Source: Amoebophrya sp. A120
Lineage: Eukaryota > Protista > Dinoflagellata
Reading direction: 5' to 3'
Assembly (NCBI GenBank): GCA_905178155.1
Contig: CAJINV010000004.1
Location: 5,268,258 to 5,332,257, forward strand
Length of the DNA stretch: 64,000 bases
Shown here piece by piece: positions 877 to 64,000 of the stretch. Each line of letters opens with the position of its first letter. The stretch's first letter is position 1. Both the position numbers and the translations under genes were made by a program. The notes beneath the pieces are model-generated. The model saw only the letters and a list, made by a program, of their open reading frames with translations. It did no database searches and was not told the origin of the DNA.

Positions 877-3800
877 CTAGGCAGTCGTGTGCGGGTGGTT
901 TCCTGCACCTACCGCGGTTTTCCCTCCGGCGTTCGGATCAATATCCTCCTCGCCGGAGTAATCTGTTTCGTATTCACTGGACGAATCCGAGGTATTCCCA
1001 GCAAGAACGCCGTTCACCGGCACCGCAAACCCCGCCCCCGCCTATCCTGAGTAACAACGTCCCCATGACCCCCCATAGTCAATGATGGCTGGGAAAATCT
1101 CTGGAAGAATACAGGTTGAGAAGTTTTGGGATGCAAAAATGGCAAGTTTATTTTCGCCGTATTGCAGTGCAGCTTAGCAAGGAACAAAGCCGTGGACGAT
1201 GACGATCACAAAGCTATTTCCTAAATAATCCTGTACGTTTAACATAGCATTAAAACTTCCAAAACACGATTGGGGGTAGGGATGCCTCCCTTGCCCTTGG
1301 GTATGCGCATTACAAGTACTGCTGTACCCTGTCATTCTCATTGCAAATCTGCATGACAACTGTGGTTCGGGAACGTTTTTACACGACAGGATAACGCCAG
1401 TCTTCGGTTTACATTCCTCACGGCCGGTGTCGAGGAGTAGGTCGTGCCCTCGCGATCCACTTTTTCCCGTTGCGCGGCCATATCAAATGCAAATATGTCT
1501 GGGTCTGGAAACTTGTAATGCTGCGCTGGGAATAGTGAATACTGATACTCTGTAATGCACAGGCAAGCATGACAAATATCTGCGCTTCTTTCTGTTGCGT
1601 TTTTCGCATGACAAACTGCGTTTTTGGATGACAGGCAAAAGGGTCTCTTCTTAGACACGCATCACAAGGAGCTTTTTGGTCATGCTAGACAAGCATGACA
1701 AATCTCGCAAGCTTCCATACGCAGACCCAGGCATATTTGCATTTCATAGGCCAGGAGTTTGCGCAAGTCCTCCTTCAGTGCGTTGTTCTGTTTTTGTTCC
1801 GGTGCAGAAGTCAACATCTTGGTCAACGAGCGCGACGGCGAGGTCCGTTGCTGCGAGCTAAATCGCGTCGGAGTCTGACCGGCAAGAAAGTAGTTCGCAT
1901 CTTGTTCGTCCCTACCGTCGTTTTTATTACCCAGCAAAGCATTCCGCCCGACCCAACCCTTGCCCGGGACCCGCTGCCAGCTGCCGTGATAGACAGATTT
2001 GGTTTCTTGGTTGAGTTTGCTACTTTTGCATTTGCTGTTTGAAGATAATGCATTGATGTTACTACTACCTCCAGCAGGTTCTTGGGGGTGCCGAGCGTCC
2101 GACGGAGTCGGAACGGTGGAGACCGGGGACGCGCAGCTGGACGAATGGTTGCAGTGGCTCTTGTTCCGCCCAAAAGGAGGTTCTGCGTTACAGTAGTTCC
2201 TCGGTGTAGTTGTAAGAGCTGCAGCACCGGTACTACGCCCCATGGACGTCGTCCTCGATGTGTTTAGAAGAGTTTTATTGCACGCCGTCCCACCAGCTGC
2301 TCCTGCAACCGGATGAACTTCATCTCTGCTGGTTGTAGTTGCTTCCTGGGTTGAAGTGGAGGTAGAACTAGAACCTGTTGTATGATCGTGTTTATTAAAC
2401 ACATCTTCAACACTACTCGTTCCTTTTCGCACCGCCTGGTCGAGCTCGCGTTCTTCCTGTAGTTCCCGCTCCTGGTGGCCCTGGTTCGCCGTGGCCGTCC
2501 CCGTGTCTGTGTCACTAGAATTATTAGAACCCAGGTCCGAAGAACAAATCTGCAGTTGGCTCACTCGCGATCGACGGGTGAGGGAAGTAGAGGAGCTGCT
2601 TGTGTAGTTTGTTCCAGGGAGATGAGTTGATGCGCTAGCGGTATTTTCACATTGTTGCCCTTGTTCCTCTCGTCGTGGTCCCGTTGTGCTTCTACTGCCC
2701 GCAGGAGTTGTCCTGGGAGGACTTGGACTTGCCACGGCCGCCGGGAGGTGTTCGTCACAACTGCTCAGGTCGTCAGTGGATAGTAGTACTTCGGTCCCAG
2801 GTACTACTGGCGTGTCGTTTTTTCCGTCCCCGTCCGGGGACGGAATATAATTACAGACCGTCCCGCCTCCCGCACCCGACGACACGCGCGTGGTGGTCTC
2901 TGACTCCGCGCCGGAGAAGATCATGGGCCGCTCGGGTCGGCTGTCAATGTGCATTTGGTCTCCTCCAGAGGGGTCGGATGCATCATCCTCCGCATCTCCC
3001 ACCCGCAGATGCAGTTGATCCAGCCCCTTCACCAGGAACCCAAAGTCCGCCTCGTTACGAGCGCGGTCTTCGACTTGTTGTTTGTGCGCTGAGGCTGCAC
3101 GCGGCTCGTTGTTGTTTTCATCTCCTGCCCGTACTTCTACTCGCGGTTGCTGATCCTCGTCGTGGTTCTCGACCGACACCGCTCCTACGCCCCCATCTTC
3201 ATGTGTTGTAGCAGGAAAAACCGCGGCCCTCGAGGACTCCTGCAGGCTCGTTGTGTGAGCCTCCTCCAGCATCACAGGAGCCTGTCTATTTTCCACTTGG
3301 TGCATCAGCTTCTCATAGTTCTTCATCTCTTCGGACGACGACTGATCCTCTGTCCGCTCTTGCTCGGTTCGGTCGAAATAACTGGAAGCGTCGTCAAGCT
3401 GTTGACCAACGTGGTCCTCGGGACTATCTGCTGTGCCGGCTGGTCGCGTCACATTAAAAATGTGGTCTTCAGATGAAAACAAGAAGAGATCACCTTCTTC
3501 TCCATCGACATTGTGGTTGTCCATGTCCTCCTCTTCCGGCTCACTGCTGGGACGCAGCTCCATCGGGTCTTCAAAGAGCTCGTCTGCTAAGTCCTCGATG
3601 TCGCCCGCGACCGCGGCGGCGGTCCCAATCACGCGAGGCTTGTTGTGCATGACAAGTGACTTCATTTTGTTCACGGCTTGTCCGCTTGGGTCATTACTAG
3701 CCGAGTCTCTCCCCCTGAAAGACGTCCTTGACGAACAGGATCGCGCGGAGAGGCAGCTCTAAAATGCAAAAGTGTCTGGGTCTGGAAAAATGCAACTTGT

Positions 3801-4868
3801 GCTGCTGCATTTGGATGTCTAAAAAATTCGTGTTGCATGAGCAGCAAAAGGAGTCTAATTCTTGCTACGCGGAGGGGGCATTTGTCATGCAGAATAGGCA
3901 TCAAGAATCCCTCAGAAAACCTGTGATGCTAGGGCATGCATCACAGACATCATGGCTCACGCAAACCGTGCATGACAAGTCTCAGAATCTTCCAGACCCA
4001 GACATTTTTGCAATGTATAGCAGCTGTGGTAGGTCGACTGGGAGACCGAGCGCTGCAAGGATTGCAAAAATTGGCTCTGCCGTGGTTCTGCGCTGCCGGG
4101 GGAATAGGTATCATCATGCTCGTCGGATTTTTTAGATGAAGTGCCGGAATTTCTTTTTATTTCCAGGTCGTCGTTCAACCTCGCTTCCATCTCGCTTCGC
4201 TTGGTGAGGAGCTGTGCCGTCAAGACAACGGGAGATGTGGCTGTGGTGCCTGTGCCACGACTTCGAACATTTTTAAACCATTCGGTACTAGTACATTCGG
4301 TAGTACTTCTACTGGTCCTCGCGGGCGTTCTCTGATCTCTTGCTGTGGTCTCCACCTCTTCTTCTTGAAGATGCTCCTGCAAGTGCGACGCCGGGGGCGC
4401 TGGGATCATTTCACCTTCTTCGTAACCCACGACGACTCCTTGTTGTGGTCGTCCTCCATGTCGAGATCTACAAGCTGTTTTGGTCGTTGTAATTGATGCT
4501 GCTGTCTTGTTTTCATTGTGGTCTGTCGCGACCGATGTTGGGACGGAACGACCGGAAGGTTCTTGTTCATCTCGACCTGGCCGCCCGGGCGAGGCAGCTC
4601 GCACAAGAGGGAAAGACAAGGAGGGTATTAATGTTGTAGTTTCACATTCATCTTCTTCATCGACCATAAAGATTTTTCCCATCAGCAAAGCAGTTACGAG
4701 GACCACGGCGGTAGTTGCAGTTCCACCTACAACGCAGCACGAAGTAGATTTCGACCGCACTTTTCCGCTGCAGGAGCTTCGAAGAGGACAACCTCGCAGC
4801 CGCGCCGGCCTTCCACACTCCTGCGTTGTTGTTCTCAATGAACAAGACGACCAAAAATTCCAGGACAT
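877..4868 (-). CDS. Spliced hypothetical low-complexity (S/T/E-rich) protein, ~1030 aa, 3 introner introns, hydrophobic segment near the N-terminus
   Basis: ORFs 3957..4889, 1680..3674 and 1338..1658 join in frame when elements 3758-4019, 1481-1748 and 1043-1393 plus one 5-bp repeat each are removed (3096 nt). First ATG at 4868, stop TAG at 877-879. Start is tentative. Confidence 0.7.
1043..1393. mobile_element. Introner family B (TIR TATCCTGAGTAAAAACGTCCCCAC)
   Basis: TAT..ATA, DR ccgcc/acgcc. Confidence 0.85.
1481..1748. mobile_element. Introner family A (TIR TATCAAATGCAAATATGTCTGGGTCTGGAA)
   Basis: DR ggcca. Confidence 0.9.
3758..4019. mobile_element. Introner family A
   Basis: DR gcagc; left end TCT. 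Confidence 0.9.
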
Positions 4869-6522
4869 GCCGGCTCGGGTCGGCGACACAATTTCGGTTC
4901 TTGATGGACGACAACAATGATGTTGGGCGGTGCTCGAGCTTGATGTTCTCGTGAGCTTGAGCAGTTCCAGTTCCGAGACTATATTACATTCCGGTTCTTC
5001 CGGTCAGCGCCAGTGCGGTCTATCAGAGCCCGAGGAACGAAGCGTGCTCCCGTACTTCTCGGAAGCTATTTCGGAAAAAAATCTGATGAAAATACTTAAC
5101 GTCATCATGTTTACATGATCTTCATGTTCATGCAAGTTAACCTGCGACTGCGAGCGTCTTCATATGCACTCGATCATTTTGTCGAAGAACAATAATTTCC
5201 TCCTGCTGATTTTTCATCTTCGCCCCACAGGCGCTCACCGACGAGGAAATGATCGCGCTTGTTTGTTCCCGTCCCTTATCGTAGGTTTGCTCCTCTTGCT
5301 CTTCTGAAATGAGAAAAAGATGGACATTTTTAGGGCCTTGAACATTTGATGCCGTGCCCGGGCACGGAAAGAAAGAAAGAAAGAAAGAAATCGACGGACG
5401 TAAATTGTACTGCAATAGTACTGCAATGCTTGCTCAATTTCAGGACTTCCACTGCCAATACAACGCCACAAAGATCAAAATAGCAGTACTGCAGAAGCAG
5501 CTGAAAATTGATTAAGTAATTCTTTCTTACTTTATTTCTGGTGACGCCGAAAAATTCAATTTTATTCTACATCTTCTCCAATGATTAATTACATTTGTGA
5601 TACAAAAATCCGTGGCTCTTTCTACCATCAAACTTGTACAAGAATAGGAAAAGCAACTAAAATGGAATAGGTACGAATAGCAAATGCATTTTGAAAAAAA
5701 ATCCGTCGCCGGCCATTGCAGCAATTCAAATCAAGATCAACAGAAACAGAAAGTGTTGTAAGTACGGAATTCGATACTTAGAATTTATTTGGCTAGGTCG
5801 TGTCTCACTTCTGGAGGTTTTTTCTTACGACAACGTGATTTTTTCTAAACAGATTTCTCGCGCGCCGGACGGCGAAAAGCTACTAGGTTCTTCAGGATTG
5901 AAGCTAGAGAAATGAAAATTGTCAACATTGATAAAGACAACGCGGAAGCGTTCGCGTTGCTGCAATAAAGAAACCATATGTATAGAAGTCCGTAAACCAG
6001 TCTTGTTTCAAATCTACATTGAGGAGTGCTAGTGTACTGGGTACTACGGGGCTTCTACTTACGCAAACAGTAAGACAGACACGGCCAAATTCGCGTCTTC
6101 GATTTGAGTTGCAAGCATTGATTTCAAGTATTCAGAGACAGAAATGAAGTTGTGAAGTATTAAAAGTGTAAGAAGATCATCGGGCTCGTCGATCATATTT
6201 GCTTTGTACACGAAAAGATGTGCAAAATTCATTTTTTTCGCTAGTAGATGATGAAAGAATGGATTGATACATTACGAGCAAAGACGAGGTCCGTTGCCTT
6301 TTGGTGTTAAGGACCTTGGAGGCACAATCGTGCGCCCGCCCATAGGCTAGATATACTTTTACTTGTTCTACTTGAAGTTGCTATAAACTGATTCCAATTT
6401 GTCCTCTATTGGCCGTAGCTGAAGCTGTGCCTTCGGGGAACATGAGTTTGAGGTAAAAATTGTGATTATCGCATGCCTTCCAGCTCGGAGTTGGATCGGT
6501 AAAACTAAAAATCTCGATCCTT

Positions 6523-9500
6523 TTAAAACCCCGTGGTCACATTATGAAAGTGCACAACTCCCACTCCCCCTCATTTGTATTGCGTGAACAGCAATACAAG
6601 CGTCAGCAAGAATACGGGTTTTGCGTGACAAATTTGGAAAGGAGTGTAGTGTTATTTGGGCTGCCACAACTTGTGATGCAAACAGTCCAAAGAGCCAAGG
6701 CGTCAATTAGGTATTTTGCATTACCAATGAGGGGGAGGGGGAGTTGTGCACTTTCATACACATCCGTGACGGTGTAGTTGATCTGGTACCCAGTCGACTC
6801 GTAGGCTTCGTTGCTGTAGAACTCGATGAAGAACGCGTTGGATTTTTCCGTGAACAAAAACTCGTTCGTTCGGTTCTCCCCGCACAGCAGTTGCCTCGGC
6901 GGCTGCCCCACGCTGCCCCGCCAAACGCCCTTCCAGATCAGAACCCGGTCGAACACGCACGACGGCGAGAATTCCAAGGTATCAAATGCAAACATGTCTG
7001 GGTCTGGAAAATTCGAACTTGTATGTAATGCTGGTCTTGCATTCCTGTGGAATTTGTATTGCATGACCAACAGAAGTAGTCATCATAGATACGTCATACA
7101 GAAACGCAGTTTCCCATGCGGGCTGCGCATAAGCCAGAGTCTTTGAAAGTTGTCATGCTTAGCTGCATTCGGAAGTGTTTCGAACATCCACACTTTAGCA
7201 TCACAAGTTCTTGCCTGACGCAGATATATTTGTATTCCATACACGTCCATGAAATCCAAATTAAAGTGAAACATGTAGTCCCGTGTCTCGAACGTGGTCA
7301 ATTCGATGTAGCACGCCGTGTTGGGGTTGTACCGCTGCTGCGGGTTCGCCGATTTTGTGTGGGACAAAAGCCCGCTCCACCGGTCCCACCCGATGGTCTG
7401 GTTGGTCAAGGGGTCTACCCGTAGCGGGCGGATCAACCGATGCCGGTCCACCTGAGGCGACGCCAAGCACGGCGTCGGGTCGTTCATCACCGTGCGGCGG
7501 ATCGGGTACCCCGGAAAGGTCTCGGCGGAGTGGAACAGGAATTGAGGCGGAACAATCTGTAAGCAGGTACAGGATAGAAGACCGTTGACGAGACAAAGAA
7601 CGTAGAATCATGATGAAAGTCTCGATCTATCTGCAGCTCGCTTCTTCCACAGAAATGCAAATGCCAATGCGCAGAGGACATTACCAGATCTTCGATGAGG
7701 TGGAAAATGTAAATGATCCAACATCAAACCTAACCGACAACTACAAACTCTCCTTTGATATATATGCATTATACCTGCTCCACGCCGTCGGGCGTCTTCC
7801 ACTTCAGCCTGAGAATGGCAGCCCGGGTCAAGTACGGCTCTCGGTAATCCAGGTTCCTCGCTACGTAGTACTGGTATTTCACTGAAAGCGCGTACAGCTG
7901 CTCCTTTGTCAGGTAGACCGAACGGGAGACAAACGTGTCAAACAGCTGCGTGGTGCCGTTAACGAGCTGTTTTTATAGTAATGTTAGCTTTTCTTTTGGT
8001 GTAGAGACACTTTTTCGGAACATGAAGATCATCACTTGAGCTAATATTCTAAAACAATTGAAATTTATAAAATTACCTGGTCCCGATTCGGATCGGACTC
8101 CACGCCGAACAGCAGCGCGCCCTCCAGGAAGACCTGCGCCTTCCCAAATACCTCCAACTTAAACTCATAGGTGCCCGAGACACCGGGAATCAAGTGGCCC
8201 GTGAATTCCTCTTCATCGTAGTCGCTGGTGTCCTGCGCAATCATGTAGCGCACACTGTCCACCACCTCGGCCCGGGCTCGGGGGTCGTTATCAATTGCAA
8301 AAGTATCCGTATCGTACTAGTGGTAATTGAAATTACAATTTTCAAACTAGCAAAACACGATGACAAGAATAAATGGACTTGTTCTATTCCATCGACTGCG
8401 TTAAAAACTAAAAAAAAAGATTTGCGCGTAGCACGAGTACGATACAACTTTTGCACAGGATACTCGTTGCGGTCTAGCAACTCGGAACGGTAGGTGGCGC
8501 GCAGCTTCAGACCAAACTGGCGCTCGAACCCACACGCCATCTACAGAATTTTTGTGTTTTTAGATAACGTGCAATTCTAGAAAAAGTTTATTTTCCGAGA
8601 TTTTCTTTTTTGCAAGTAAGTAAGTACCTCCTATGAAAGTAGTAATTTCGCCTCGCTCTACTTCTGGCCGCACGAGAATACAAAAAACGCCCAACGTACC
8701 GGCACGAAATTTGGCCTGATGGTCCTCAATCCGAGCCCGTCTTCCGTTTCCGTGAAGTTCACACTCGGATCCATCACCGCGGTCGTGTAGTCCGAGGCCA
8801 CCCACTATGCAAGCAGAAAAAACTGTTTCACTGTACACTTTTGATGCATGATAGAATGGAACACAGACGCATTTGTCTTGCAGCTACATATGCAACTGCA
8901 AGACATTCGCTTTCTCGCATGGCAAGTTTTCGTTTTCACGGACGCTGCGTGACGCAAGTAACTCACAAAATCCTTACGGGTAAAACTACGCTTTTTTCTC
9001 ACGATACCCACCGGCGCCACTTTCCCGGAAAGGTACTGTCGTCCTGTGCGGTGCAGACCAGCTCCGGGTCCCCGTACACCATTTCTTTGCGAATCGGACA
9101 GGACAAGCTGAGGCGCGCCCCGTAGGTGAAATACAGGTTTGGGTCGAAGTAGGTCAGAATGTTCTTGTTTTCCAAGTCCTCCATGTTTGGATCGATGGCC
9201 GGCGCCGGGCAGAAATTGCTGATCAGGCCGCAGCTGTCCACGTTGGGGATACTGGCCATGGTGGTGGGGCAGTTGGTCTGCGGACCGATGATGTTGGACC
9301 AGAAGCCCTGTTATAAGAGTGCGCATCAACGAACTCCCCCTCATTTGTCATGCAAAACGCCTTCTAAAAATCCACCCTTTGCATGCCCTGTGGCGCTGCT
9401 TGCGCGACAGATTGTGCCCGAACAAGCGGAAACAGCACTGGAAGCGGTCGCGAATTTGTCATGCAAAAGCTGCACTTGTGCCAGCACTTGTGTTGCTGTG

Positions 9501-54500: not shown

Positions 54501-56963
54501 TTCTGCTAGCTTGCAACTTCGTCCTGTTCTTTGTGCGTTTGCTGTCAGAAGTGGTACAACTGTCAGCGTAGTGGCGGTCGTAGTTTCGTGTACCAGCACC
54601 CAAAGCCCCGGCAAGTTTTTGTCGGAGGTCTTGTTGATCTTGTTTTTGCTCCCTTCTACTTCCGCTTGTTCGCTTCGAACTGCTACAACGACCCGTGGAC
54701 CACGACCATAATCTACTCGACCATAATCTACCTCTGGGACGTCGACTTCTTCTGCACGAGCAGCAGGACCTTCGGCTCCTCTTCTGATTCGCAGGACGTA
54801 AAAATTCCGCACCTCCTTGTTCGGGATCTGCTGGAGGCAGAAAGCGTCGCGAAGGCCGCGAATAGACCTCCGGTGCTCGTCGTCCTGAGCAGGGTGAAAT
54901 TATATTAACCGTGCTTCGCTGCTGCAGCTCTGTTGACGCGACGAGGTCCACCGCCTGCTCCACGAAGTGGAGTTCTTCTTGTTGCACATCTTCACGTCTA
55001 CCACGGGTTGTTGTACTCGTGTTAAGCAAAAACTCGGAAGCAGCAAAACGCTTATGACGGCGATAAAATATTCATTTCAAAAATATTCACGGAGCCAAAA
55101 AAAAAATTTTTCGGCCAGTGGCCGCCCAGCCGGGCCGAAGCGCGCCGCGCCATGCGTGAGGCATTGCAGAGCGCTAACGCGCCTGCGATGCCCCGACGCA
55201 GGTACTACCCGGAAGTCGCTTGCTGGGCCCAGTCGGTCGATGGCGCTCGAGAGTCAGATCCTTCAAACACACAGGGGACGGCCTGCGCGCCGGCGACATG
55301 CAAAGCCAACTTCCACAAGTTGCAGCATTCGTAGCATTCAGGCGGCAGATCACGGTCTCAAAGCTTTGAAGAAGCTGCCACGCTGCGCTGCCTTGCCCCT
55401 ACAGGCGTTGCTCGATCCCGACTGGACTCGAGCACATCCCGGTAAGTGGCGGGCATTAGAGCAGTTGCTCTAGACGGCCACACTTTGCCGAGGCGCAAAC
55501 CCCTGCAAAAGACGGGGTCGCCTGGCCTTTACCAGGATGCTTCTGCTGGCCAAGTCTATAGAAAAGCTCAGCGACTTTGTGTGCTGCCAAAGGCCGCAAA
55601 GGTTGCAAGCAGAAAAGAAGCACTTTTTTGACGTCCTCAGAGAAGGTATGAATATTTTTACTTTTTGGGCTGGTCTGGAAGGAGCATAGCAGTGGGATAC
55701 GCAAAAATATTCACCTCCCCAAAAAACGCCTGTTTTTCCCAGAAAGTGCGCACTTTTTTGGCGTTTTTCGCTGTCGCAAATTGCGCAGATGAATATTGGA
55801 TAAATCAAGTGGGAGTAGCTTCTGCTAATAAAAACGGAAACGCAGTGTCGTCGTGATTCGAAAATGAATATTGAGAAGCGAAGCGGGCGAGAGGTGTCCG
55901 CCTTGGTGCAAAACAGCCACTGCCGGCGCTGTGGCGCATTTCAGTTCAGCCTTGGCCTTTACAGGAGTAGCGCTTGCGTCTGGGCGAAGTGGGCCTTTCC
56001 AGATTCTGCAGAAAAACTCCGCGGGGTCCCCGCAAAGCGAGGGCGCCCAGCCACCTAGCAAGCAATCCGCCAAAGCGCGCGCGACATCGTTTTCTTTAGA
56101 GAGGAAGGAGCACAGTTGAGGCGTAGGCCTTGATATCTCTCGGCCCTGGAAGTCGCCGAACGCGTTTCGTGCGCTTTCTGGGCCAGGATTTCTACATGAA
56201 GCGCCGCAGCGAAGCTCTCGCGCGCGCATGTCGCTGAGTCTTTTTTCTAGGCGTTCACTAATTGCGCAAAAAAAATTTTTTTTCGGCCCTGTTGCACATC
56301 TTCACGTCTACCACGGGTTGTTGTACTCGTGTTAAGCAAAAACTCGGAAGCAGCAAAACGCTTCTCAGCTGGAACTAGTATAGAGCTCGCCGACGCGACA
56401 TTTTCACTGCTCTTGCCGGTCCTCAAATTGGTCGACGGAATAAAGTCGAGCGTTTTATTAGTAGAATCAGTGGTCGTGGCAGCAGCTCTTGTCGTCGTGC
56501 TATCTTTCTCTACTTGTAGCTCCTGTTCCACCTCGGGCAGATGAAGTACTAGCAGTTCTTTTTGTAACATCTCATCACCTCGCCTCCGCGCGTTGATGAC
56601 GGAGGCCCATTTTTGCACCGAGGAAGAAGGTATCGAGTGCACAAATGTCTGGGTCTGGAAGGTTGTCACTTGTGATGCTGTCTTTGGAAGGTAAAAAAAA
56701 TCTGTATTGCATGACCAGCAAGAGGAGTTCAGTTTAAGCTACGCGGAGTGGGCGTTTCTCATGCGGAATACGCATCAAAAGGCCCTTGAAAAATCTGTGA
56801 TGCTAGGTCATGCATTACAGGGGCCTCATGGGCGATGAAAAATATGCATGACAAACGTAGCAATCTTCCAGACCCAGACATTTTTGCAGTTGGTAGAAGG
56901 CGACGAGGGCGGACAGGACGGACGACGTGCCGGTGCTGCCAGGGGTTGTACTAGTGCCGACAT
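6523..56963 (-). CDS. Giant multidomain extracellular/adhesion-type protein (~8,300 aa by hand count): LNR, EGF, furin-like/Calx-beta, filamin-like Ig, PA14, sushi/CCP, LamG-like, Thr-rich mucin, CUB
   Basis: GC-rich exons between 73 TIR elements and 4 GT-AG introns translate to recognisable domain motifs. Checked junctions are in frame and the summed exon length (25002 nt) is divisible by 3. Ends ...YQINYTVTDVTTGF* (TAA 6523-6525). ATG 56963 is tentative. Not every junction was translated. Confidence 0.7.
6543..6758. mobile_element. Introner family C (TIR TATGAAAGTGCACAACTCCC)
   Basis: DR cacat. Confidence 0.9.
6759..7556 (-). CDS. Giant gene exons: C-terminal CUB domain
   Basis: YNPNTACYIEL...LDFMD(L/V)EFSPSCVFDRV...FFIEFYSNEAYESTGYQINY, split by element 6980-7241. 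Confidence 0.75.
6980..7241. mobile_element. Introner family A
   Basis: DR caagg/cacgt. Confidence 0.85.
7557..7774 (-). other. Canonical GT-AG intron
   Basis: cag|gtataa ... cttacag|att; keeps the PA14 frame. Confidence 0.75.
7775..8288 (-). CDS. Giant gene exons: PA14-like domain
   Basis: FTGHLIPGVSGTYEFKLEVFGKAQVFLEG / YALSVKYQY...LRLKWKTPDGVEQ / IVPPQFLF joined through GT-AG introns. Confidence 0.65.
7967..8076 (-). other. Canonical GT-AG intron
   Basis: cag|gtaatt ... aaacag|ctc; in frame. Confidence 0.75.
8289..8462. mobile_element. Introner family D (TIR TAT.....TGCAAAAGTATCG)
   Basis: DR gtcgt/ctcgt. Confidence 0.85.
8541..8699 (-). other. Canonical GT-AG intron
   Basis: ccg|gtacgt ... 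ctgtag|atg; in frame. Confidence 0.7.
8806..9006. mobile_element. Introner family E (TAT....GAAAAAA..GT, heterogeneous)
   Basis: DR cccac. Confidence 0.85.
9312..9546. mobile_element. Introner family C
   Basis: DR cctgt. Confidence 0.85.
9568..9780. mobile_element. Introner family E
   Basis: DR cacaa; near-identical to 29998-30207. Confidence 0.9.
9842..10120. mobile_element. Introner family B
   Basis: DR gcgtg. Confidence 0.9.
10210..10369 (-). other. Canonical GT-AG intron
   Basis: agg|gtatag ... ttccgcag|gta; gives QGYFLLPLD...QCKMGY. Confidence 0.75.
10705..11007. mobile_element. Introner family A (divergent)
   Basis: DR gcttg/gtttg. Confidence 0.8.
11026..11282. mobile_element. Atypical/degenerate non-canonical intron
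   Basis: TAC..ATA ends, short IR gtcgtgc/gcacgac; removal plus 5 nt restores the frame. Confidence 0.6.
11475..11801. mobile_element. Introner family F (TIR TATC..AAGGAAAAATCCCCC)
   Basis: DR cgtgg. Confidence 0.9.
11802..13091 (-). CDS. Giant gene exons: sushi/CCP-like repeats
   Basis: ORFs 11754..12287 and 12506..13054 contain C-P...C..GY....G.....C...G.W patterns. Confidence 0.75.
12247..12525. mobile_element. Introner family A
   Basis: DR cgtag. Confidence 0.9.
13092..13352. mobile_element. Introner family A
   Basis: DR actcg/acgtg. Confidence 0.85.
13353..15228 (-). CDS. Giant gene exon: LamG/concanavalin-like segment plus sushi-like segment
   Basis: ORF 13348..15294: HMAYSWD...ALFINGEEV...ISRVRFYD; LQCNAGY. 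Confidence 0.6.
15229..15552. mobile_element. Introner family G (TIR TATGAAAGCCTCAG...AATCCTCAAAGTGGA)
   Basis: long TIR, DR agcgc. Confidence 0.9.
16259..16409. mobile_element. Introner family D
   Basis: DR ggtgt. Confidence 0.9.
16448..16708. mobile_element. Introner family A
   Basis: DR ccggt. Confidence 0.9.
17456..17722. mobile_element. Introner family A
   Basis: DR ccagt/ccaat; opposite orientation to 16448-16708. Confidence 0.9.
18583..18847. mobile_element. Introner family A
   Basis: DR gttct. Confidence 0.9.
18848..20425 (-). CDS. Giant gene exon: Thr-rich mucin-like and Cys-containing region
   Basis: ORF 18625..20397 with a long poly-Thr run and many N-x-S/T sequons. Confidence 0.75.
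20207..20312. repeat. (GTN)n trinucleotide repeat encoding poly-Thr on the minus strand
   Basis: gtggtcgtcgtcgtggttgaacttgtggtcgtgg... run. Confidence 0.85.
20426..20687. mobile_element. Introner family A
   Basis: DR gcttg/acttg; inverted near-copy of 18583-18847. Confidence 0.9.
21221..21448. mobile_element. Introner family A
   Basis: DR cgcta/tgcta. Confidence 0.85.
21494..21759. mobile_element. Introner family A
   Basis: DR caagc. Confidence 0.9.
21760..22553 (-). CDS. Giant gene exon: sushi/CCP repeats
   Basis: ORF 21748..22566: GSSAAVSCQAGY, GESVVITCMEGY. Confidence 0.75.
22554..22790. mobile_element. Introner family C
   Basis: DR cgcgt/tgcgt. Confidence 0.85.
22906..23191. mobile_element. 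Introner family B
   Basis: DR tgtcc. Confidence 0.9.
23341..23602. mobile_element. Introner family A
   Basis: DR ccatt; left end CAT. Confidence 0.9.
23709..23928. mobile_element. Introner family E
   Basis: DR ctacc/ctgcc. Confidence 0.85.
24004..24259. mobile_element. Introner family A
   Basis: DR cgtcc. Confidence 0.9.
24260..25029 (-). CDS. Giant gene exon: LamG/pentraxin-like domain plus sushi
   Basis: ORF 24177..24995: TWCVWVK...WQHLCYVW...EFYIN...PRLYNYRLTEDQI. Confidence 0.7.
25030..25355. mobile_element. Introner family F
   Basis: DR acccg/aaccg. Confidence 0.9.
25457..25742. mobile_element. Introner family B
   Basis: DR tggtg/cggtg. Confidence 0.9.
25983..26131. mobile_element. 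Introner family D
   Basis: DR ctggt. Confidence 0.9.
26410..26637. mobile_element. Introner family C
   Basis: DR ccgga/cagga. Confidence 0.9.
26679..26948. mobile_element. Introner family A
   Basis: DR caact/caagt; left end CAT. Confidence 0.85.
27348..27616. mobile_element. Introner family H (TIR TAT.....GCTCAGGTGTTACAATCTCAAACGTT)
   Basis: DR ttgca. Confidence 0.9.
27846..28114. mobile_element. Introner family A
   Basis: DR cacga/tacca; frame check supports this boundary. Confidence 0.85.
28174..28425. mobile_element. Introner family H
   Basis: DR cagca/cagct. Confidence 0.9.
28472..28727. mobile_element. Introner family A
   Basis: DR cgccc. Confidence 0.9.
28728..29402 (-). CDS. Giant gene exon: three sushi/CCP repeats
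   Basis: ORF 28675..29373: GSRAKFECNVGF, GSIAQIRCKPGF, NSEVFFECLPGW. Confidence 0.8.
29403..29577. mobile_element. Introner family I (TIR ...GCAGGCAGGTCATATTTGTA)
   Basis: DR gttgc. Confidence 0.9.
29629..29880. mobile_element. Introner family H
   Basis: DR cacca. Confidence 0.9.
29998..30207. mobile_element. Introner family E
   Basis: DR ctttg. Confidence 0.9.
30270..30419. mobile_element. Introner family D
   Basis: DR ggcac. Confidence 0.9.
31040..31325. mobile_element. Introner family B
   Basis: DR tcttc. Confidence 0.9.
31636..31869. mobile_element. Introner family A
   Basis: DR tgcac. Confidence 0.9.
32075..32388. mobile_element. Introner family J (TIR TATTACA(A/G)TGAAAAATGCCCC)
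   Basis: DR cgtct. Confidence 0.9.
32389..32908 (-). CDS. Giant gene exon: PA14 domain
   Basis: ORF 32356..32883: RLTGYLYV...TDGGINFWLDG...GYTPIRLEYF...LQLYWSG...IPSTSLY. Confidence 0.8.
32909..33165. mobile_element. Introner family A
   Basis: DR tgttg. Confidence 0.9.
33246..33528. mobile_element. Introner family B
   Basis: DR tgagt. Confidence 0.9.
33589..33861. mobile_element. Introner family A
   Basis: DR cgcga/cgtga. Confidence 0.85.
33862..38930 (-). CDS. Giant gene exons: filamin-like Ig repeats
   Basis: QQDGRYSLFFTPQRLGFYYLEVKIN, DNLDGSYHVKYT, ITAKDSYN, LQSKDENN motifs across several exons. Confidence 0.65.
34633..34873. mobile_element. Introner family K (TIR TATGG..TTCTCAAATGTTAC..TCTCAACTGTTAC)
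   Basis: DR tcgtc. Confidence 0.9.
35005..35286. mobile_element. Introner family A
   Basis: DR gtgca; right end GTA. Confidence 0.9.
35353..35632. mobile_element. Introner family B
   Basis: DR agccc/agcac. Confidence 0.9.
35699..35975. mobile_element. Introner family A
   Basis: DR ggacg. Confidence 0.9.
36031..36282. mobile_element. Introner family A
   Basis: DR caaac/ccacc. Confidence 0.85.
36352..36558. mobile_element. Introner family L (TIR TAT......AAAAAAGTTC)
   Basis: DR gttca. Confidence 0.85.
36884..37157. mobile_element. Introner family B
   Basis: DR ggctc/ggttc. Confidence 0.85.
37214..37382. mobile_element. Introner family D
   Basis: DR taaag; left end CAT. Confidence 0.85.
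37631..37890. mobile_element. Introner family A
   Basis: DR acgcc/aggcc; right end CTA. Confidence 0.85.
37945..38205. mobile_element. Introner family A
   Basis: DR cccgg/cacgg. Confidence 0.85.
38931..39183. mobile_element. Introner family A
   Basis: DR ctgca. Confidence 0.9.
39663..40270 (+). repeat. Tandem array of ~68-bp unit (GGCCACGCCTACCGACCTACCCACCCACCTGCCTGGTGGGGGGGTGGGG...)
   Basis: about 9 imperfect units, directly visible. Confidence 0.9.
41555..42090 (+). repeat. Second tandem array of the same ~68-bp unit
   Basis: unit starts at 41572 and 41640; same order of variants as the first array. Confidence 0.9.
43442..43955. mobile_element. 514-bp MITE-like element, 24-bp imperfect TIR, 9-bp TSD GATTTTTTT (Mutator-like TSD length)
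   Basis: ggttgttatacaggaatctcaacg ... cgttgagatacctgtagtacaacc; TSD 43433-43441 and 43956-43964; subterminal TCTCAACG repeats. Confidence 0.85.
43762..43859. repeat. Perfect 62-bp GC palindrome followed by degenerate CCCTAAA telomere-like repeats
   Basis: 43762-43823 equals its own reverse complement; then ccctaaaccccaaatcctaaacccgaaaccctaaacc. Confidence 0.9.
44077..44361. mobile_element. Introner family B
   Basis: DR ccacc. Confidence 0.9.
44463..44714. mobile_element. Introner family H
   Basis: DR tggga. Confidence 0.9.
44924..45201. mobile_element. Introner family B
   Basis: DR tgcgg. Confidence 0.9.
45264..45591. mobile_element. Introner family J
   Basis: DR cgccc. Confidence 0.9.
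45916..46216. mobile_element. Introner family B
   Basis: DR cagcg. Confidence 0.9.
46293..46571. mobile_element. Introner family B
   Basis: DR aggtt. Confidence 0.9.
46629..46891. mobile_element. Introner family A
   Basis: DR gttgc. Confidence 0.9.
47184..47467. mobile_element. Introner family B
   Basis: DR ggaac. Confidence 0.9.
47521..47782. mobile_element. Introner family A
   Basis: DR agatc. Confidence 0.9.
48417..48682. mobile_element. Introner family A
   Basis: DR tccac; right end GTA. Confidence 0.9.
48683..49276 (-). CDS. Giant gene exon: furin-like Cys-rich repeats and Calx-beta start
   Basis: ORF 48655..49236: CxxC repeats followed by GVFEFESPRYHVFQDSTYIDVLVVR. Confidence 0.65.
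49277..49545. mobile_element. Introner family A
   Basis: DR tgtcg. Confidence 0.9.
49546..50184 (-). CDS. Giant gene exon: tandem EGF-like repeats
   Basis: ORF 49400..50305: CHPNCIHGTCIAPDLCHCDAGWKGPHC and further repeats. Confidence 0.85.
50185..50484. mobile_element. Introner family J
   Basis: DR ctgga. Confidence 0.9.
50684..50845. mobile_element. Introner family D
   Basis: DR aggtt/acgtt. Confidence 0.85.
51086..51363. mobile_element. Introner family B
   Basis: DR gttgg; right end CTA. Confidence 0.9.
51364..51680 (-). CDS. Giant gene exon: LNR/Notch-like module
   Basis: ORF 51361..51687: MADGFCDRSNN...CFFDGGDCC. Confidence 0.75.
51681..51948. mobile_element. Introner family A
   Basis: DR gcagt. 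Confidence 0.9.
51998..52217. mobile_element. Introner family C
   Basis: DR ggttc. Confidence 0.9.
52218..55053 (-). CDS. Giant gene exon: long S/R-rich low-complexity N-terminal region ending in a hydrophobic signal/anchor segment
   Basis: ORF 52213..55029 (938 aa) ends ...FCAALYFLGLFLHLVSVCCDFALAA then enters Cys-rich sequence. Confidence 0.6.
55054..56289. mobile_element. 1.24-kb insertion of unknown class flanked by a 74-bp direct duplication of coding sequence
   Basis: 54980-55053 is identical to 56290-56363; peptide LNTSTTTRGRREDVQQ appears in both ORF 56247..56669 and ORF 52213..55029. Confidence 0.75.
56631..56895. mobile_element. Introner family A
   Basis: DR gaagg; right end GTA. 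Confidence 0.9.
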
Positions 56964-57899
56964 TATTTCTACAAGGATCTTATCACTTTGATGCTTGTCC
57001 TTGTTTGTTGCAAGATGAAGAACCCCGCTCCTTTTTGAAAAGCAAGTGGTTTCTTACTTACTTACCCCAACAAGCAGGACCTAGCTACGACAGAACCTCC
57101 ACAACCCGTGAAGCTCCTGCTGTTGCTTTGCATCTGTGCAGCTGCCCATGTTGATCCCACGTCGCCCGTCCAGATTATAACTGCCGATCGCGTGGTGGTC
57201 TTCTCCAAAAGCGGCGGCCTGAAGCAGGACCACCTGCACGTCCTCGCTCCGCCCCCCACAACGGCCTCCACGCCGGGTGTAGTGCAACAAGAGATTGACA
57301 CACGGATGAAAACAACCCGGTGACTGATAGCTGGTGCTCTGGCCCAACAACAACGAGCAGAACGACAACGACCGCCTCCACCGATCTCCTGATATAATAA
57401 TTTCACGATCTAGCACAAAAGAACTACCCAGGCTGCATTTATTTTTGTTGGGACAAGATCTTCAAGTACCTGTACCACGACGGGCACATCAATAAAATGA
57501 AAATGCGAGAAGAACGAAGTAGAAGAAAAAGATGCAATAAAAACCGATTCACACGATCTTCCAAGAATGTTGAACTCGGAAAACAAATCAATCTTTGCCA
57601 AAAATTATTTCTTCAGTAAAACTCGGCGCAGAAGTGTCTTTGTAAAAAAGCTTCTGTCGTCTGGCCACCACCAGATTCCTCGAATGGAGTCCGCTTACGT
57701 ACTTGGTCTAGTTCAACAGCCCACAGACGAACTGCATCGATCTCGTCCACAAGAATCGATATAGTACTTTATTCATTCTAAGTTGTTGTACAACTTGTGT
57801 TTGTAGTATTTATTACTTAGCACGGAGCTGCAGCACGCCCCTGCGTTCTAAAAATAATACTTAAACTGCCAGTAAACTTTCGGAGTACAGGACTACAAC

Positions 57900-60800
57900 T
57901 TACAGATCATTCCTGTCTCTTGCCGCCGTCAGAGCCCGGCGACTGTTGTCTACGATGGCGTCGATGCGAAGCGCGAGAATGTGCAGCACGTGTCCATTCC
58001 CAGTGCCGATGCGGTGCTTGATGTTCATCGTGGCCCCACTGGAATATCGTAGGAACCGGTAGTGGCTGGTGCAACCATTGACCACGTAGATGTGGCTTTC
58101 GCGCTTCTTCGGTGCTGGCGCCATGTCGAACGTCTCTCCGCTGGCTGCCATCTCCAGTTGCAGCCCGCCCTTCCGGTGGCCCCAGCCCTGGTCCTTCCAG
58201 TCCACAAAAACGCGCAGCCCCAGGACCCGGCCCGCCGGCAGCACCACCTCCGCCGCCGTCCCGTTCACCAGCAGTGGGCGAAAATCGTCGAAGAAGTATA
58301 GCTTGCAAATATGTCTGGGTGAGTTGTGACGCATGTCAGTGACTAAAAAGTGCACTGTAGAAGTGCGCCGCCAAGCATGACAAGTTTTCTCGTGCTTCTG
58401 TGCTGCGTATTCCTAATGAGAAACTGCGTTTTTGCACGACAGGCGAGAGAGGCTGCTTCTAGCTGCCACGCAATATTACAGAGTGCGGAGAAGTCATGCC
58501 AGACAAGCATGACAGGTCTCGCAATCTTCCAGACCCAGACAGACACATTATATTTGCAGTCGATAAGAAGGGGGGGCCGTCAATGTAAAGCTCGTGGGCA
58601 TTGCTCACCGACGCAAACTCGAATATCAAATGTAAAAATGTCTGGGTCTGGAAGGGTGCCAGCCTTGTCATGCAGGTTTTCCATGACCCATGAGGTCTGG
58701 TATGCGGGACATAGCATGACAGATTATGTGAGAGTTCTATCATGCCTATCCTGCACGGGAAACTGCCTCTCGATTACGTCAAAAGTGGACAGCTTTTGGT
58801 AACAATGCAACACAGATTTTTACATGCTTCAGATTTAGCATGACAAGTTGCTTTGTTCCAGCAGACCCAGACATTTTCGCATTTGATATCGAACAGCTTC
58901 ACACCATAGTGGGCGAGGTCGTAGTAGGTGTCCAGATTGTCCGCCGACGGCACGCGCCGCGCAACGGCGTCGAAGCCGGCCAGCGCGGGCGGGTGGAGGT
59001 CGGCCTGATCCTCCAGTATCTGGATCTCTCAAAAGGAAAAATCCCCCCTCCGCCCCATATCGGAAACGAAACTTGTGCCGCTGCATTTTTTGAGAAGTAC
59101 ACAACTCGACTTGTATTGCTAGAAGGCCAACAAGAGCCGCAGCTGTGGCCTCGTTTATTGCAGGCCATTGGTCATGCTGTTTCCCACTTCCAGCTGCCTC
59201 CTGTCGTAACATACTGAAGACGCAAGGCTTTCCCACGCCACCCGGCACTACAGCGCGCATCTTTTCCCTTCTAGCAATGACATTGTGACCACAAATCTGC
59301 ATCACAGATTTCCGTTTTGATATCATGGGAAGGAGGGATTTTTCTTCTTGATAGGATCCCGCACACGTTTAAAATCTCCGTAGCGCCGGGCGCTCCGACG
59401 CGCGCCGTGTCCCACGCAACGTAGAATTCCCGCACAACCCGCCCCAGCAGGGGGATTATCAAATGCAAATATGTCTGGGTCTGGAAAATTGTAATGCTAA
59501 AAGTGAATGATAGACGCACTGCAATGCGCAACTATGCATGACAAATTTCTTGGCTGCCATGTCTTACGTATTCCGGATGGCAAAGTGCGTTTTTGCATGA
59601 CAGGTAAGTGGGCCTTTTCGTGCCTATGCAACACAGATTCTCGAGTCATACCAGACAAGCATGACAAACTTGCATTCTTCCAGACCCAGACATTTTTACA
59701 TTTGATAGGGATGTCCACGTAGCGAAAGGCGGGGTCGTACAGGGTGGCCACATTCACGGGGGCCGTCACGGAAGCATCCGCGGGGTGGGCCACGCTTTGA
59801 ATGCGATCGGGGTGGGCCGGGTCCAGGTTGCCCAGCGCCGTCTCCTCAGAGGCATCGTTTCTCACATAGACTCGTGCTTTCTTGAGACGGTTCTCGCGCC
59901 CGCTTATTGCGAGGAAAAATTAAATCCCCCCCTCCCCATACAGACGAGGCACGCCTGCGGCGATTCGTATGGATTGCAAAAGTGTCTGGGTCTGGAAGAT
60001 TGCCAGGTTTGTCATGCAGGTTTTCCATAACGCATGAGGTCTGGTATGTAGGACATAGCATGACAGATTCTGCGAAGCCTTTCCAATGCCTATCCTGCAT
60101 GAGAAACTGCCTCTCGATTAGGTCAAAAGTGCACAACCTTTGGCAATCATGCAAGACTGTCTTTTGCCTGCTTCAGATGTAGCATGACAAGTTGCATTCT
60201 TCCAGACCCAGACATTTTTACATTTGATAGTTCGTTTGCAGTGCTGATTTGTGACCACAAATCCGCCCCGTCCTATGCAAGAAGGCAAGCCCACCGGCTC
60301 CGCCGCATTATACCGGCGGTTTGTGATGCTGTTGGTCCTTCAGTGTAGTCATACTGGGCGGGTATGTCAAACCCTCTCTGCTCAGGCTTAGCATATGCCT
60401 GCAGTTTTTCTACTGCAAGACAAACCGGAAATGTAGTGCTGTAAGCAAATCCAGCATCAGAAATTTCGTTTCGGTGTGGGGAGGGGGGTTTTATTTCCTT
60501 TTGGTAACGCTCTTGCCCGCCTCACTCGTGTACGCAGCCCCGTAGTTGTACAGCCGCCAAATCGCGACTGCGCGCTGCCCGCCCTCGGAATCCTTAAACT
60601 TGGCGAACCAGTAAGGTGCGCCGTCGCCCTCCGCCGAGTGCCAACAGCTGCCGTGCCGTGTCGGGTTGGGCGACATGTAGAAGGGGAGCCCCGTGCCCGT
60701 CTTATCGCGAGGAAAAATCCGCGCCGCGCCCCATATCGACGAAACGGCACGCCTCAGAAACTTTGCAATGCGGATTTGTGGCCACAAATCGCGTCTGTCT

Positions 60801-63800
60801 TGCAAGAAGGCAACTCCACAGGCTCCGCCGCATTATGCCGGCGGTCTGTGATGCTGGTGGGCCTACAGAAAAGACGTTTCTCATGCTAAACGCCTAGGCC
60901 AGCCCCTCTCTACTCAGGCGTGATATGGGCCTGCAGTCCTTCACTGCAAGACGCAACTGATTTGTGTACGCAAATCCAGCATCAGAAACTTCGTAGCGAT
61001 ATGGGGAGGGGAGATTTTTCCTTCTGATACGTCTGCGTGGTGTGTTGCGAAGCGGTCGCGTACCACCGCGGGGTCGTTTCCCCCAAGTCGTTCACGCCCT
61101 CCGAACTTATGCAAGAAAAAAACTGTGTAAGTGTAACTCTGTAATGCAAAACAAGCAAGAGAGTTACTACACCTGGCATGCCAGACAGCCATGAAGTCCT
61201 CTTTCCATGTGTGTTTTCCCATTCCCTTACAACCCACGCATGACAGTTTTTCTCTGTCATGTAGAGCAAATCTGTGATGCTGTCAGCCAAAGAAAGTTAA
61301 TACACTAACGCAGTTACTTTTTATTTTCTTGGATAGAACTTCGCCACGAGCTAAGGTCCCCCTGCCCTACCATCGGTGCGGCGCCGTTGCAGGCGGGGTT
61401 CTCCATGGAAACCTTGGTGGGGGTCGCCCCCGGCGCGCGTCGGGGCCACGAGTTTGTCCGCCGCACAAACGTCGAGGTGGTGCTTGTGCTCGTGGTGACA
61501 GGGGGTGGTGCCGCCGTGGCTGTCGGTACCGGCGTGGTGCTGGTTCTTATATGCATTGCAAAAGTATCGAAATTGTAGCAATTGCAGCCATGGCGCATGA
61601 CGAATCCCGATGCTTCAGGTTCAGCATTAAACCACCATTATAAATGCTATTTCTCTCCTTCAGAAAAGAACTTGTGACGCAAGTTATATACCAGTACGAT
61701 ACTTTTGCAAGTATGCATATGTTGACGTGACAGACAAATCTTCGTAGATCCAGATGCCACACCAGCAAAGGCTTCCGTCCAGCCCCGGACCGGAGGTCGG
61801 TCCGGCGATTTGCAGTTTGTGCAGCCACTTGTTCACCGGAACCCAGACGCCATCGGCAGCCATGACAATCCCAGACGTCATCACGGCGGTGGGGGCTTCC
61901 AGCAGGACGCCGTTCTGATCGTAGTACTCCAAGGACGCGTAGGATTGGAAATTATTCTTACAGGCATCGTTGTCCCCCCGTTTGAAAATCATGAAACCGC
62001 TAACGTAGTGGAGCGCCCCGTCGCGAAACTCTGCGGCCCAAAACTGCCTGGAGAGGCCTCCGCGTTGCAGCTTCTATCCACTGCAAATATGTCATGTCTG
62101 GGTCCTCTGGAAGATTGCAAGGTTTGTCATGCAGGTCTCGCATGGCCCATGAGGTCTTGAATGCAGGGCCTTGCATAACAAATTCTGCAGTGAGGTCTCT
62201 ATCCTCCGTATCTTCCTGCATGAGAAACTCCCTCTCCACTTGCACTTGGTCGAAGCAAGGTCGGAAGCTTTTGCTAATCACGCTGACGAAACACAGATTT
62301 TTGAATGATTCAGATTCAGCATGACAAGTTGCAGTGTTCCAGATCCAGACATATATACATTTGATAGGTTCAAACACACACTGATGTCCGAGGCGATTAT
62401 ATTGGTCCCGGACCCCCATCGTATGCAAGAAAAAAGCTGTGATGTAGGTGTAACTCTGTAATGCAGAAAATGCAAGAGAGTTACGCCTGTCATGCCAGAC
62501 AGCCACGCAGTCCTCTTCCCATGTGTGTTAGTTTTCCCTTACAAGCCACGCATGACAGGATTTTTGTTTCATGTAGAGCAACTCTGTGATGCTGTCAGCC
62601 AAAGAAAGTTACACTAACACAGTTTTTTTTCTTGGGTACCTCGAGAGGAAAAATCGTACTCCGGTCTCAGCAACACCTGCGCCGCTGTGACCCAAGCGGC
62701 GCCCGAGAATGTGGCAGACAGAGCTCGCACCGAGACAAGCGTGCCGACCATAGGCTCGGCTAGCAGGTTGCAGTCGCTCATGCGGTAGTAAACGAAGTCC
62801 GGGTTGACGGAAGGCGTGCAGCCATCCTGAAAAAGCCAACACTCGCCGTTGCTTCCTATTGAATGTAAAAACGTCGTGGCTCCCACCCTGGACTCAAGTT
62901 CTTGGAAACTTAGCAACACAAATGGTCCAAAAGCTTTGGAAGTAACGCATGGCGCATCACAAATTCTGTCAATCTTATACTTTTTATACTTATTAATACA
63001 GCATTACAAATTCCAAAACACGACGTAGAAATGTCGCTCATGCTCATGGGGATGCGCATTACAAACGTTCGCGTACCTGTACATGCAAATCTGCCTGACA
63101 AGAACTATGGGCGGGCGGGAACGTCTTTACTGAGGATAGTTCTCGTGAAAAACCCACCGCAATTTGGGGTGTTCGCGCACTGGTAGCGGCACTCGGCGAC
63201 GCTGTAAACCCGATCGTTGTAATAAATGCCCGACCCGAGCTGCTTGTCGTTCATATTCGCGCAGGCGCCCTGGAAGGTGGAGGGGCAGGAGGTCCCATCG
63301 ACGCGGGGCACGTACGCCTTACACTTTGCCTGGTTTTGCGCCATACTCCAGTGCTGCCATCCTGCCGCCGAGGATTGCGTACAGCCGTCCACAAAGTACA
63401 TAGCCTGCGCCTGCCCGTTGTTCTGGTTGCGAAACATCGCCACGCAGTTGTTGTCGTAGCCGCGGCCCCGACAAAACAGGTCGTAGTCGGTAATCTTGGT
63501 GTTGGCAACATTGGTCTGGTCCACCGTGGCAATGTCACTACCCGCGATCGCGAGGGAGTTAAATTCGTTGCACGCCCCGCCCCACACCGCGGGGCAAACG
63601 CGGCCCTTCAGCTGACACTGATTTAAGGAGTATTTTCTCCACCACGGCCCAATCCACCACGTGCAGCCCGAAGAGAGAAGATCGCACGTACTGCCTGCGC
63701 CTGTGCCGACAATGAAGTCCGCGCAACCATCCGTCATCGCGCACAGATACCGGCACTCCTCCTTCGAGTAAGGTCGGTCTGAGAAGAGACCGACCCTTTT

Positions 63801-63932: not shown

Positions 63933-64000
63933 ATAGGGATAGCCGGAAGGTTGAGGCTAGTCCCCAATTACTGCGCAGATTCTTAGCATTCACGGTATGC

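Follow-up and report, generated by a model that had tools for sequence, protein, structure and literature searches.

Introners are known, and so are subterminal binding repeats as a feature of transposons. The introners of the dinoflagellate Amoebophrya sp. A120 were described by Farhat et al. (2021; PMC7789003), who reported up to 1954 families and gave their mobilization and splicing as unknown. According to the text, Table S4 and the legend of Fig. S19 of that paper, A120 introners are about 240 nt long, belong to many families, have inverted repeats made of TAT, seven variable bases and an A-run, are flanked by 5-bp direct repeats, and use non-canonical NT-NN splice sites; the text mentions no internal motif or spacing shared between families and no clear splice signature. 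Here, we discuss the elements in a 64,000-nt stretch of the A120 genome (assembly GCA_905178155.1, contig CAJINV010000004.1, positions 5,268,258 to 5,332,257 of the forward strand), which we refer to as "the window". Judged by their sequence, these elements match A120-type introners in anatomy. Beyond what the text of PMC7789003 describes, they have a shared and phased internal motif, a fixed 5-bp target site duplication (TSD), and terminal bases held by the host, namely U-A at the 5´ end and an A at position −7 of the intron. We consider it likely that the motif is a set of DNA-binding sites for one mobilizing machinery.

Several described transposons invite comparison. In the hAT element Hermes, short subterminal repeats lie beyond the terminal inverted repeat (TIR), differ between the two ends, and are bound by a multimeric transposase (PMC10368747). 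The sites described here are likewise short, repeated, located beyond the TIR and end-asymmetric; by contrast, the Hermes repeats as given there are 4 bp and not aligned between ends, whereas here a 9-bp word with a fixed 31–33 bp spacing occurs in unrelated bodies of miniature inverted-repeat transposable elements (MITEs). In the Emigrant MITE/Lemi1 system (PMC1636448), subterminal motifs related to the TIR are bound cooperatively and their arrangement matters, although that system, as presented there, is of the pogo/Tc1-mariner type, concerns one family, and is not an intron. hAT5, as cited in PMC12730594, has the same TSD length of 5 bp. Ginger2/Tdd elements end in TGTNR, termini that the TAT-ended window elements lack, and the passages of PMC2836005 on Ginger2/Tdd mention no subterminal repeats. 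Within A120 itself, Gozashti et al. (2025; PMC12130899) list fam38, an 808-bp "Ginger-like" element with integrase-like open reading frames (ORFs), and file short A120 TIR families as superfamily unknown. By the dataset description, fam38 shares a 5-bp TSD and TA/TA termini with the window elements, with TIRs of 49–53 bp, and differs from them in its 808-bp length and its integrase-like ORF homology. A literature search that included the text of PMC7789003 and PMC12130899 found no printed account of the shared motif, its spacing or the held terminal bases; figures S19–S25, some A120 rows and Roy et al. 2023 could bear on this.

A motif shared by dissimilar element families

Element borders were set by scoring TIRs and TSDs (as direct repeats), with the motif playing no part. 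During curation, one false element call was discarded and one partial call was replaced; 6 of the 84 elements were delimited by hand after motif matches pointed to them. The resulting set comprises 84 intact elements in 13 families, plus two interrupted elements, to which a later gene model added 8806–9006 and 11086–11282. The elements begin with TAT and end with ATA at 157 of 168 ends, carry an A-run at TIR positions 11–15, and have a 5-bp TSD that is perfect in 56/84 cases; other TSD lengths do not fit. Being non-coding and multicopy, with TIRs and TSDs, they fit the description of MITEs. Copies within a family are about 62–96% alike.

The core word GCAT[CGT]ACA occurs 244 times in the window, compared with 8.23 ± 2.80 expected from 100 dinucleotide shuffles (largest count, 16). 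All but two of these copies lie in TAT…ATA elements: 236 in the 84 intact elements and 6 in the two interrupted ones. The two remaining copies, at 3269 and 3647, are both in coding sequence. A family-weighted matrix gives the fuller consensus GCA[TA][CGT]ACA[AG], with 18.5 sites per kb inside elements versus 0.17 per kb outside, a contrast that is circular in the window because the matrix was trained on these elements. The tips of the TIRs resemble the motif.

The initial annotation had proposed that this motif is common to many dissimilar families, present in several copies on both strands, and rare elsewhere. Its rarity elsewhere is confirmed: of the four 8-mers it named, 270 of 278 occurrences fall within the 84 elements, and there are none in the 4-kb insert (3976 bp), the 0.5-kb insert, the 1.2-kb insert, or five predicted GT-AG introns of the window (1121 bp). 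The five intervals it gave as examples (3758–4019, 15229–15552, 29403–29577, 34633–34873 and 36352–36558) all carry the motif, in 2–5 copies. Multiple copies per element are usual rather than universal, with at least two exact copies in 76/84 elements and at least one in 81/84. The claim of both strands holds for only 53/84 elements; the example at 34633–34873 has the motif on the plus strand only, and many Family B copies are single-stranded in this respect.

The dissimilarity of the families also needs qualification, since the termini (TAT[CG]..AAAA) and the 5-bp TSD are common to all of them, so that the families are not wholly unrelated. Single-linkage clustering of unmasked sequences merges families I/L/M and C/F/K. 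When the motif and 16 terminal bases are masked, 18 families with at least three members each form 15 groups with no profile matches between groups; spacer-shuffled controls likewise give no between-group matches. On this comparison, the family bodies appear unalignable, with termini, TSD length and motif held in common.

The motif observation replicates in a second assembly. Scanning metagenomes with the Family A end gave 150 loci (L001–L150), all of them contigs of one other assembly; with overlaps removed, 143 loci (609 kb) yielded 478 candidate elements, of which 421 form a strict set with at least 4/5 TSD bases matching and one exact end. Exact cores occur at 11.7 per kb within the 478 candidates and at 0.66 per kb outside, and 350 of the 443 cores outside the strict set match known families. 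One protein from this assembly has two matches, one of them a protein of Amoebophrya sp. A25 (55% identity). A filled site in L011 corresponds to an empty site in L030 that has a single 5-mer, which shows the 5-bp duplication. In the same assembly, L022 and L030 share a 7.4-kb duplicated region that is ~90% identical, within which the introner common to both, with its flanks, shows 100% identity, possibly through gene conversion or assembly collapse. L030 (1782–2108) and L011 (about 940–1050) also contain an expandable palindromic repeat, longer in L030, that includes the motif word and lacks TAT…ATA ends. Viral contigs searched with the Family A end pattern gave no matches; three matches to a motif-grammar pattern in viral contigs were dismissed as chance, since the DNA around them is phage-like and apparently coding and shows nothing else typical of an element.

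The window elements are listed below by family (the letters A–M are our own naming), with example coordinates and the start positions of other copies.

32909..33165, Family A, 37 copies of about 260 bp with TAT..ATA ends and a 5-bp TSD; this example has motif pairs at 32942/32973 on the minus strand and 33085/33116 on the plus strand, each 31 bp apart; other starts 1481, 3758, 6980, 10705, 12247, 13092, 16448, 17456, 18583, 20426, 21221, 21494, 23341, 24004, 26679, 27846, 28472, 31636, 33589, 35005, 35699, 36031, 37631, 37945, 38931, 46629, 47521, 48417, 49277, 51681, 56631, 58297, 58624, 59457, 59968, 62075
9842..10120, Family B, 15 copies of about 280 bp, motif almost confined to one strand, insertions in either orientation; other starts 1043, 22906, 25457, 31040, 33246, 35353, 36884, 44077, 44924, 45916, 46293, 47184, 51086, 62857
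26410..26637, Family C, 5 copies of about 220 bp; other starts 6543, 9312, 22554, 51998
11475..11801, Family D, 4 copies of about 327 bp; other starts 25030, 59027, 60703
30270..30419, Family E, 7 copies of about 150 bp; other starts 8289, 16259, 25983, 37214, 50684, 61550
29629..29880, Family F, 4 copies of about 255 bp; other starts 27348, 28174, 44463
15229..15552, Family G, single window copy
29403..29577, Family H, single window copy
32075..32388, Family J, 3 copies of about 315 bp; other starts 45264, 50185
34633..34873, Family K, single window copy
36352..36558, Family L, single window copy
61108..61335, Family M (starts 23709, 61108, 62422), related to Family I (starts 9568, 29998), both about 215 bp
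8806..9006, further I-like copy
39257..44026, interrupted Family A element holding the 4-kb insert (39420–43395) and the 0.5-kb insert, both motif-free; TSD CCCGG intact
59905..60506, Family D element that contains a nested Family A element (59968–60229), each with its own near-perfect 5-bp TSD
8289..8462, old E-like element that keeps its TIR and TAT/ATA and has no intact motif
11086..11282, old predicted non-canonical intron that keeps TAT..ATA and 4/5 of its TSD and has no TIR and no intact motif

Three larger inserts have features of their own. The 4-kb insert is flanked by CAAAAATT and has imperfect TIRs of about 37 bp, tandem GC-rich repeats inside both sides, and a central palindrome at 40852–40971; it is possibly Mutator-like. 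The 0.5-kb insert, at about 43456–43958 in the same Family A element, contains CTCAACG repeats and telomere-like CCCTAAA repeats. The 1.2-kb insert has a direct repeat of about 74 bp on its two flanks (about 54980–55053 and 56281–56353), far longer than the usual TSD.

Spacing, polarity and distance from the ends

The position of the motif is as regular as its sequence. Same-strand copies lie 31–33 bp apart in 11 of the 13 window families, and 31.5 bp is three turns of B-DNA. A same-strand pair at 30–33 bp is present in 63/84 elements, compared with 15.2 ± 3.5 (maximum 26) when sites are placed at random. At the level of families, with any 4-bp window of spacings allowed, the score is 8.5 versus 4.5 ± 0.75. 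The second assembly behaves in the same way, with pairs in 306/421 elements versus 68.6 under the null; for elements outside Family A, the numbers are 143/221 versus 24, and for families absent from the window the spacing is found in 9/15 versus 1.1.

The initial annotation had suggested plotting the position and strand of the motif relative to the element ends. Sites are strongly polarized: in the second assembly, the two orientations number 248 versus 13 in the first fifth of elements and 6 versus 256 in the last fifth. Offsets of the outermost outward-reading site fall at 32–34, 40–46 or 52–55 (23 family ends), with R=0.78 at 10.5 bp; taking one end from each of 12 groups gives a mean R of 0.80 (p=1.5e-4). 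The motif resembles MITE subterminal repeats in that it is internal, repeated, polarized, and positioned relative to the ends. A tail-to-tail dyad at 15–16 bp was also considered and dropped, because its nominal p=0.005 becomes p=0.10 across all spacings.

Since elements with unalignable spacers still agree in the motif, its spacing and its distance from the ends, common ancestry alone is insufficient as an explanation. That these three are held in common supports, at the sequence level, the common recognition code suggested in the initial annotation. Of the two forms envisaged there, sites for a mobilizing machinery fit the data, and a mark for excision fits poorly given the decay of the motif, its indifference to strand, and its loss from old predicted introns, which we describe below.

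Fate of the motif and of the terminal bases after insertion

Changes along lineages were scored against the two nearest relatives for 485/505 elements. The six core bases changed at 3.0%, the degenerate motif position at 9.5%, and the spacers at 8.8%. The core thus varies about a third as much as the spacers, so the motif is selected along lineages. Core change is similar in the two transcript orientations, at 3.3% in sense (GCAUGACA in the RNA) and 2.9% in antisense (the complement; p=0.33), and Family B has the motif in the RNA in sense only in 12 copies, in antisense only in 11, and in both in 4. The three least variable motif bases change at 1.7%, which differs from host-held bases (p=4e-5; see below) and does not differ from free terminal bases (p=0.12). 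In all families, TIR positions 4–8 change at 13.9%, compared with 8.8% for spacers, though they are flanked by the conserved TAT and GC-AAAA.

After insertion, the motif decays. Site density is 17.9, 16.0 and 12.0 per kb in elements with 0, 1 and 2 TSD mismatches, and among 550 strand-confident introns (filtered from 1372 predicted introns), it falls by age class from 17.6 to 12.2 to 2.9 to 0.9 per kb, the oldest class being noisy. No site at all is found in 9 of 16 older TIR-bearing predicted non-canonical introns and in 28 of 35 TIR-less ones, the latter class again being noisy. Pairs of elements at the same site in duplicated loci are identical in 3/3 cases, so no post-insertion divergence can be measured from them. 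Decay occurs equally in both transcript orientations and at a rate not distinguishable from neutral. Strong retention in old copies, which the initial annotation had put forward as the sign of a host function, was not seen. Selection acting at transposition also predicts neutral decay afterward, so the decay speaks against the host-function branch of that proposal only.

The terminal bases behave differently. In RNA orientation, U1 and A2 at the 5´ end, together with the A three bases from the 3´ end of the element (the first A of the terminal ATA), changed in 2/965 cases (0.2%), compared with 24/964 (2.5%) for the other three terminal bases. This asymmetry was first noticed in the window and was replicated in the orientable elements of the second-assembly loci (269/438, p=0.004). 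Transposition presumably requires all six bases, in which case 2.5% would approximate neutral decay since insertion and 0.2% would reflect a host requirement. The motif does not show this signature of a host splicing signal: it is not retained like the terminal U-A and A(−3), and it is blind to orientation. The motif is thus unlikely to be what the cell reads for splicing the element out; splicing likely uses the element termini.

The nine predominant non-canonical A120 splice sites in Table S4 of PMC7789003 all have T as the second base, which fits an intron that starts with the final base of the upstream TSD, takes in the element, and ends after four bases of the downstream TSD. For the element at 10809 in L015, comparison with an orthologue places three or more bases of the upstream TSD in the exon; for the window element at 26679, the exon must include two or more of them if a stop codon is to be avoided. 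In that register, the held bases are U at +2, A at +3 and A at −7, which suggests a 5´ site of the form N|UA, a candidate branch point at −7, and a 3´ site without AG. A branch-point A at a fixed −7 position occurs in trichomonads. A codon-likelihood test for the exonic TSD copy gave a weak result. Element transcripts fold strongly (z about −6). A bias toward G at the last intron base was dropped, being present in 7/10 cases in the window and 2/18 in the loci. Four sequencing runs were mapped; reads fell on element paralogues, and no usable splice junctions were obtained. That the elements are excised from RNA follows the account in PMC7789003.

Removal of the elements, i.e., excision of the element and one TSD copy, restores long host reading frames in the window:

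11269..55071, minus strand, host frame of 4202 amino acids (aa) over 42 elements and 3389 aa over 20 elements
57903..63956, minus strand, second host frame of 923 aa over 11 elements
880..5003, minus strand, third host frame of 1076 aa over 3 elements

In total, 76/85 elements sit within restored frames of at least 800 aa. The element at 8289–8462 restores its exon frame on removal and breaks it if left in; it and 11086–11282 both break coding frames without an intact motif. In L015, junction indels numbered zero for the two elements that were compared with two orthologues (2/2), consistent with precise removal. A homology search with one window exon gave no match. The region at about 5200–52300 on the minus strand reads as a giant predicted protein, several thousand residues long and carrying >60 introners, in which stretches resemble, by eye, complement-control, EGF-like and Thr-rich repeats.

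A candidate mobilizing machinery and competing explanations

Our preferred reading, which we hold to be likely, is that the motif provides subterminal, double-stranded DNA binding sites for one mobilizing machinery, lying on the same side of the helix, at set distances from the ends, and selected at transposition. The machinery, which we infer to be a transposase, is likely integrase-like or hAT-like. A multimeric transposase, or a host helper together with a transposase, would bind the sites on the same helical face and join the TAT ends for cutting and for insertion with a 5-bp stagger. New copies would be founded only by elements with intact, correctly phased sites; we propose that, as a result, spacers drift while the motif and the spacer lengths stay. 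Once an element has inserted, it would have no further need of the sites, which would then erode. For splicing the insert, the host would rely on other, terminal signals: the relaxed 5´ site, formed by the last TSD base plus TA, and the A seven bases before the 3´ cut.

Several observations weigh against this reading. The phasing to the ends spans only ~2.5 periods, its period is loosely defined, and the null range was picked after the data had been seen; inward-reading outermost sites have no significant phasing (R=0.43, p=0.09), and sites occupy the middle of elements as well as the ends. Motif base C1 changes at only 1.0%. The TSD-mismatch clock is weak, with the core gaining 0.8 and the spacers 1.0 points (519/562 elements), a ratio of 0.78 with an uninformative interval. 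Intact same-strand pairs 32–35 bp apart persist in four introns with no recognizable TIR or family (L024, 3383/3415; L025, 5947/5979; L039, 493/528; L053, 4652/4685), and 44 sites are present in predicted plain GT-AG introns, versus 6.6 after shuffling (6.7-fold), with pairs in 5/251 of these introns. These pairs and sites may be remnants or may reflect weak host retention. No transposase was found by inspecting the ORFs of the 4-kb insert, no hAT or integrase-like transposase was found by a Pfam scan of 90 of the 148 long ORFs of the loci (about 0.6 Mb), and a regular-expression search of the loci for a transposase gave no convincing match. The text of PMC7789003 reports finding no transposase in A120 and rules out general mobilization by one. 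Longer TAT…ATA spans, considered as autonomous elements, turned out to be nested inserts or neighboring elements with no convincing transposase ORF. Going by its dataset row, the best candidate for a transposase partner is fam38. As a separate observation on old introns, the pair-bearing introns of L025 and L053 read as GT-AG, and 52/251 predicted GT-AG introns begin with GTAT, which suggests that old introners turn canonical.

The persisting pairs and the enrichment in GT-AG introns are also what favors a rather unlikely alternative, in which a host protein, acting through chromatin or coupled to transcription, reads the motif in the DNA as a mark and so helps intron recognition. Such a mark would be redundant within an element, with single copies eroding and one phased pair tending to stay. 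Helical spacing would suit any DNA-binding host protein, the least variable motif bases change somewhat less than free terminal bases (1.7% versus 2.5%), and U1 small nuclear RNA went undetected in A120 according to the text of PMC7789003. However, a host mark would have no obvious need of phasing to the cut end, density drops steadily with age, the older TIR-bearing and (noisier) TIR-less predicted non-canonical introns often have no site, and the elements at 8289 and 11086 interrupt reading frames with no intact motif. The dual possibility that a transposase-derived protein reads phased GCATGACA pairs to mobilize elements and, in domesticated form, marks them on chromatin for a U1-less spliceosome, with the cut at N|UA and branching at an A kept at a constant distance of seven bases from a sequence-free 3´ site, seems to us unlikely.

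An RNA signal, bound by protein or paired in a hairpin, that directs excision from the pre-mRNA could account for the strong folding of the transcripts, and inverted motif copies in Family A can pair. Yet Family B tolerates the motif in sense only or antisense only, decay is equal in the two orientations, a 31–33 bp spacing is the signature of B-DNA, and the orientation-dependent constraint sits on the terminal bases instead; we regard an RNA signal as very unlikely. The motif could also be a functionless relic of common ancestry or internal duplication, as the shared termini and TSD length, the joining of I/L/M and C/F/K by unmasked clustering, and the likeness of the TIR tips to the motif might suggest. 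The lineage rates and the masked family comparison largely refute this reading, which we consider extremely improbable: the degenerate position within the motif is as changeable as the spacers, whereas the core changes at a third of their rate, and spacer lengths are fixed among spacer sequences that cannot be aligned.

If the motif is indeed the binding site of one mobilizing machinery, a single phased motif would merge many A120 families, said not to share a mobilizer, into one superfamily with one enzyme. It would serve as a DNA probe for finding that enzyme, and as a signature for autonomous copies and for decayed introns derived from introners. Each element would then carry two separate codes, a transposition code that erodes and a set of terminal bases (5´ U-A and the A at −7) kept by the host, and these held bases would give a direct test of how non-GT-AG introns are spliced. 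Should the dual code prove true, it would explain the splicing of tens of thousands of non-GT-AG introns, as well as the motif pairs that linger in some old introns.

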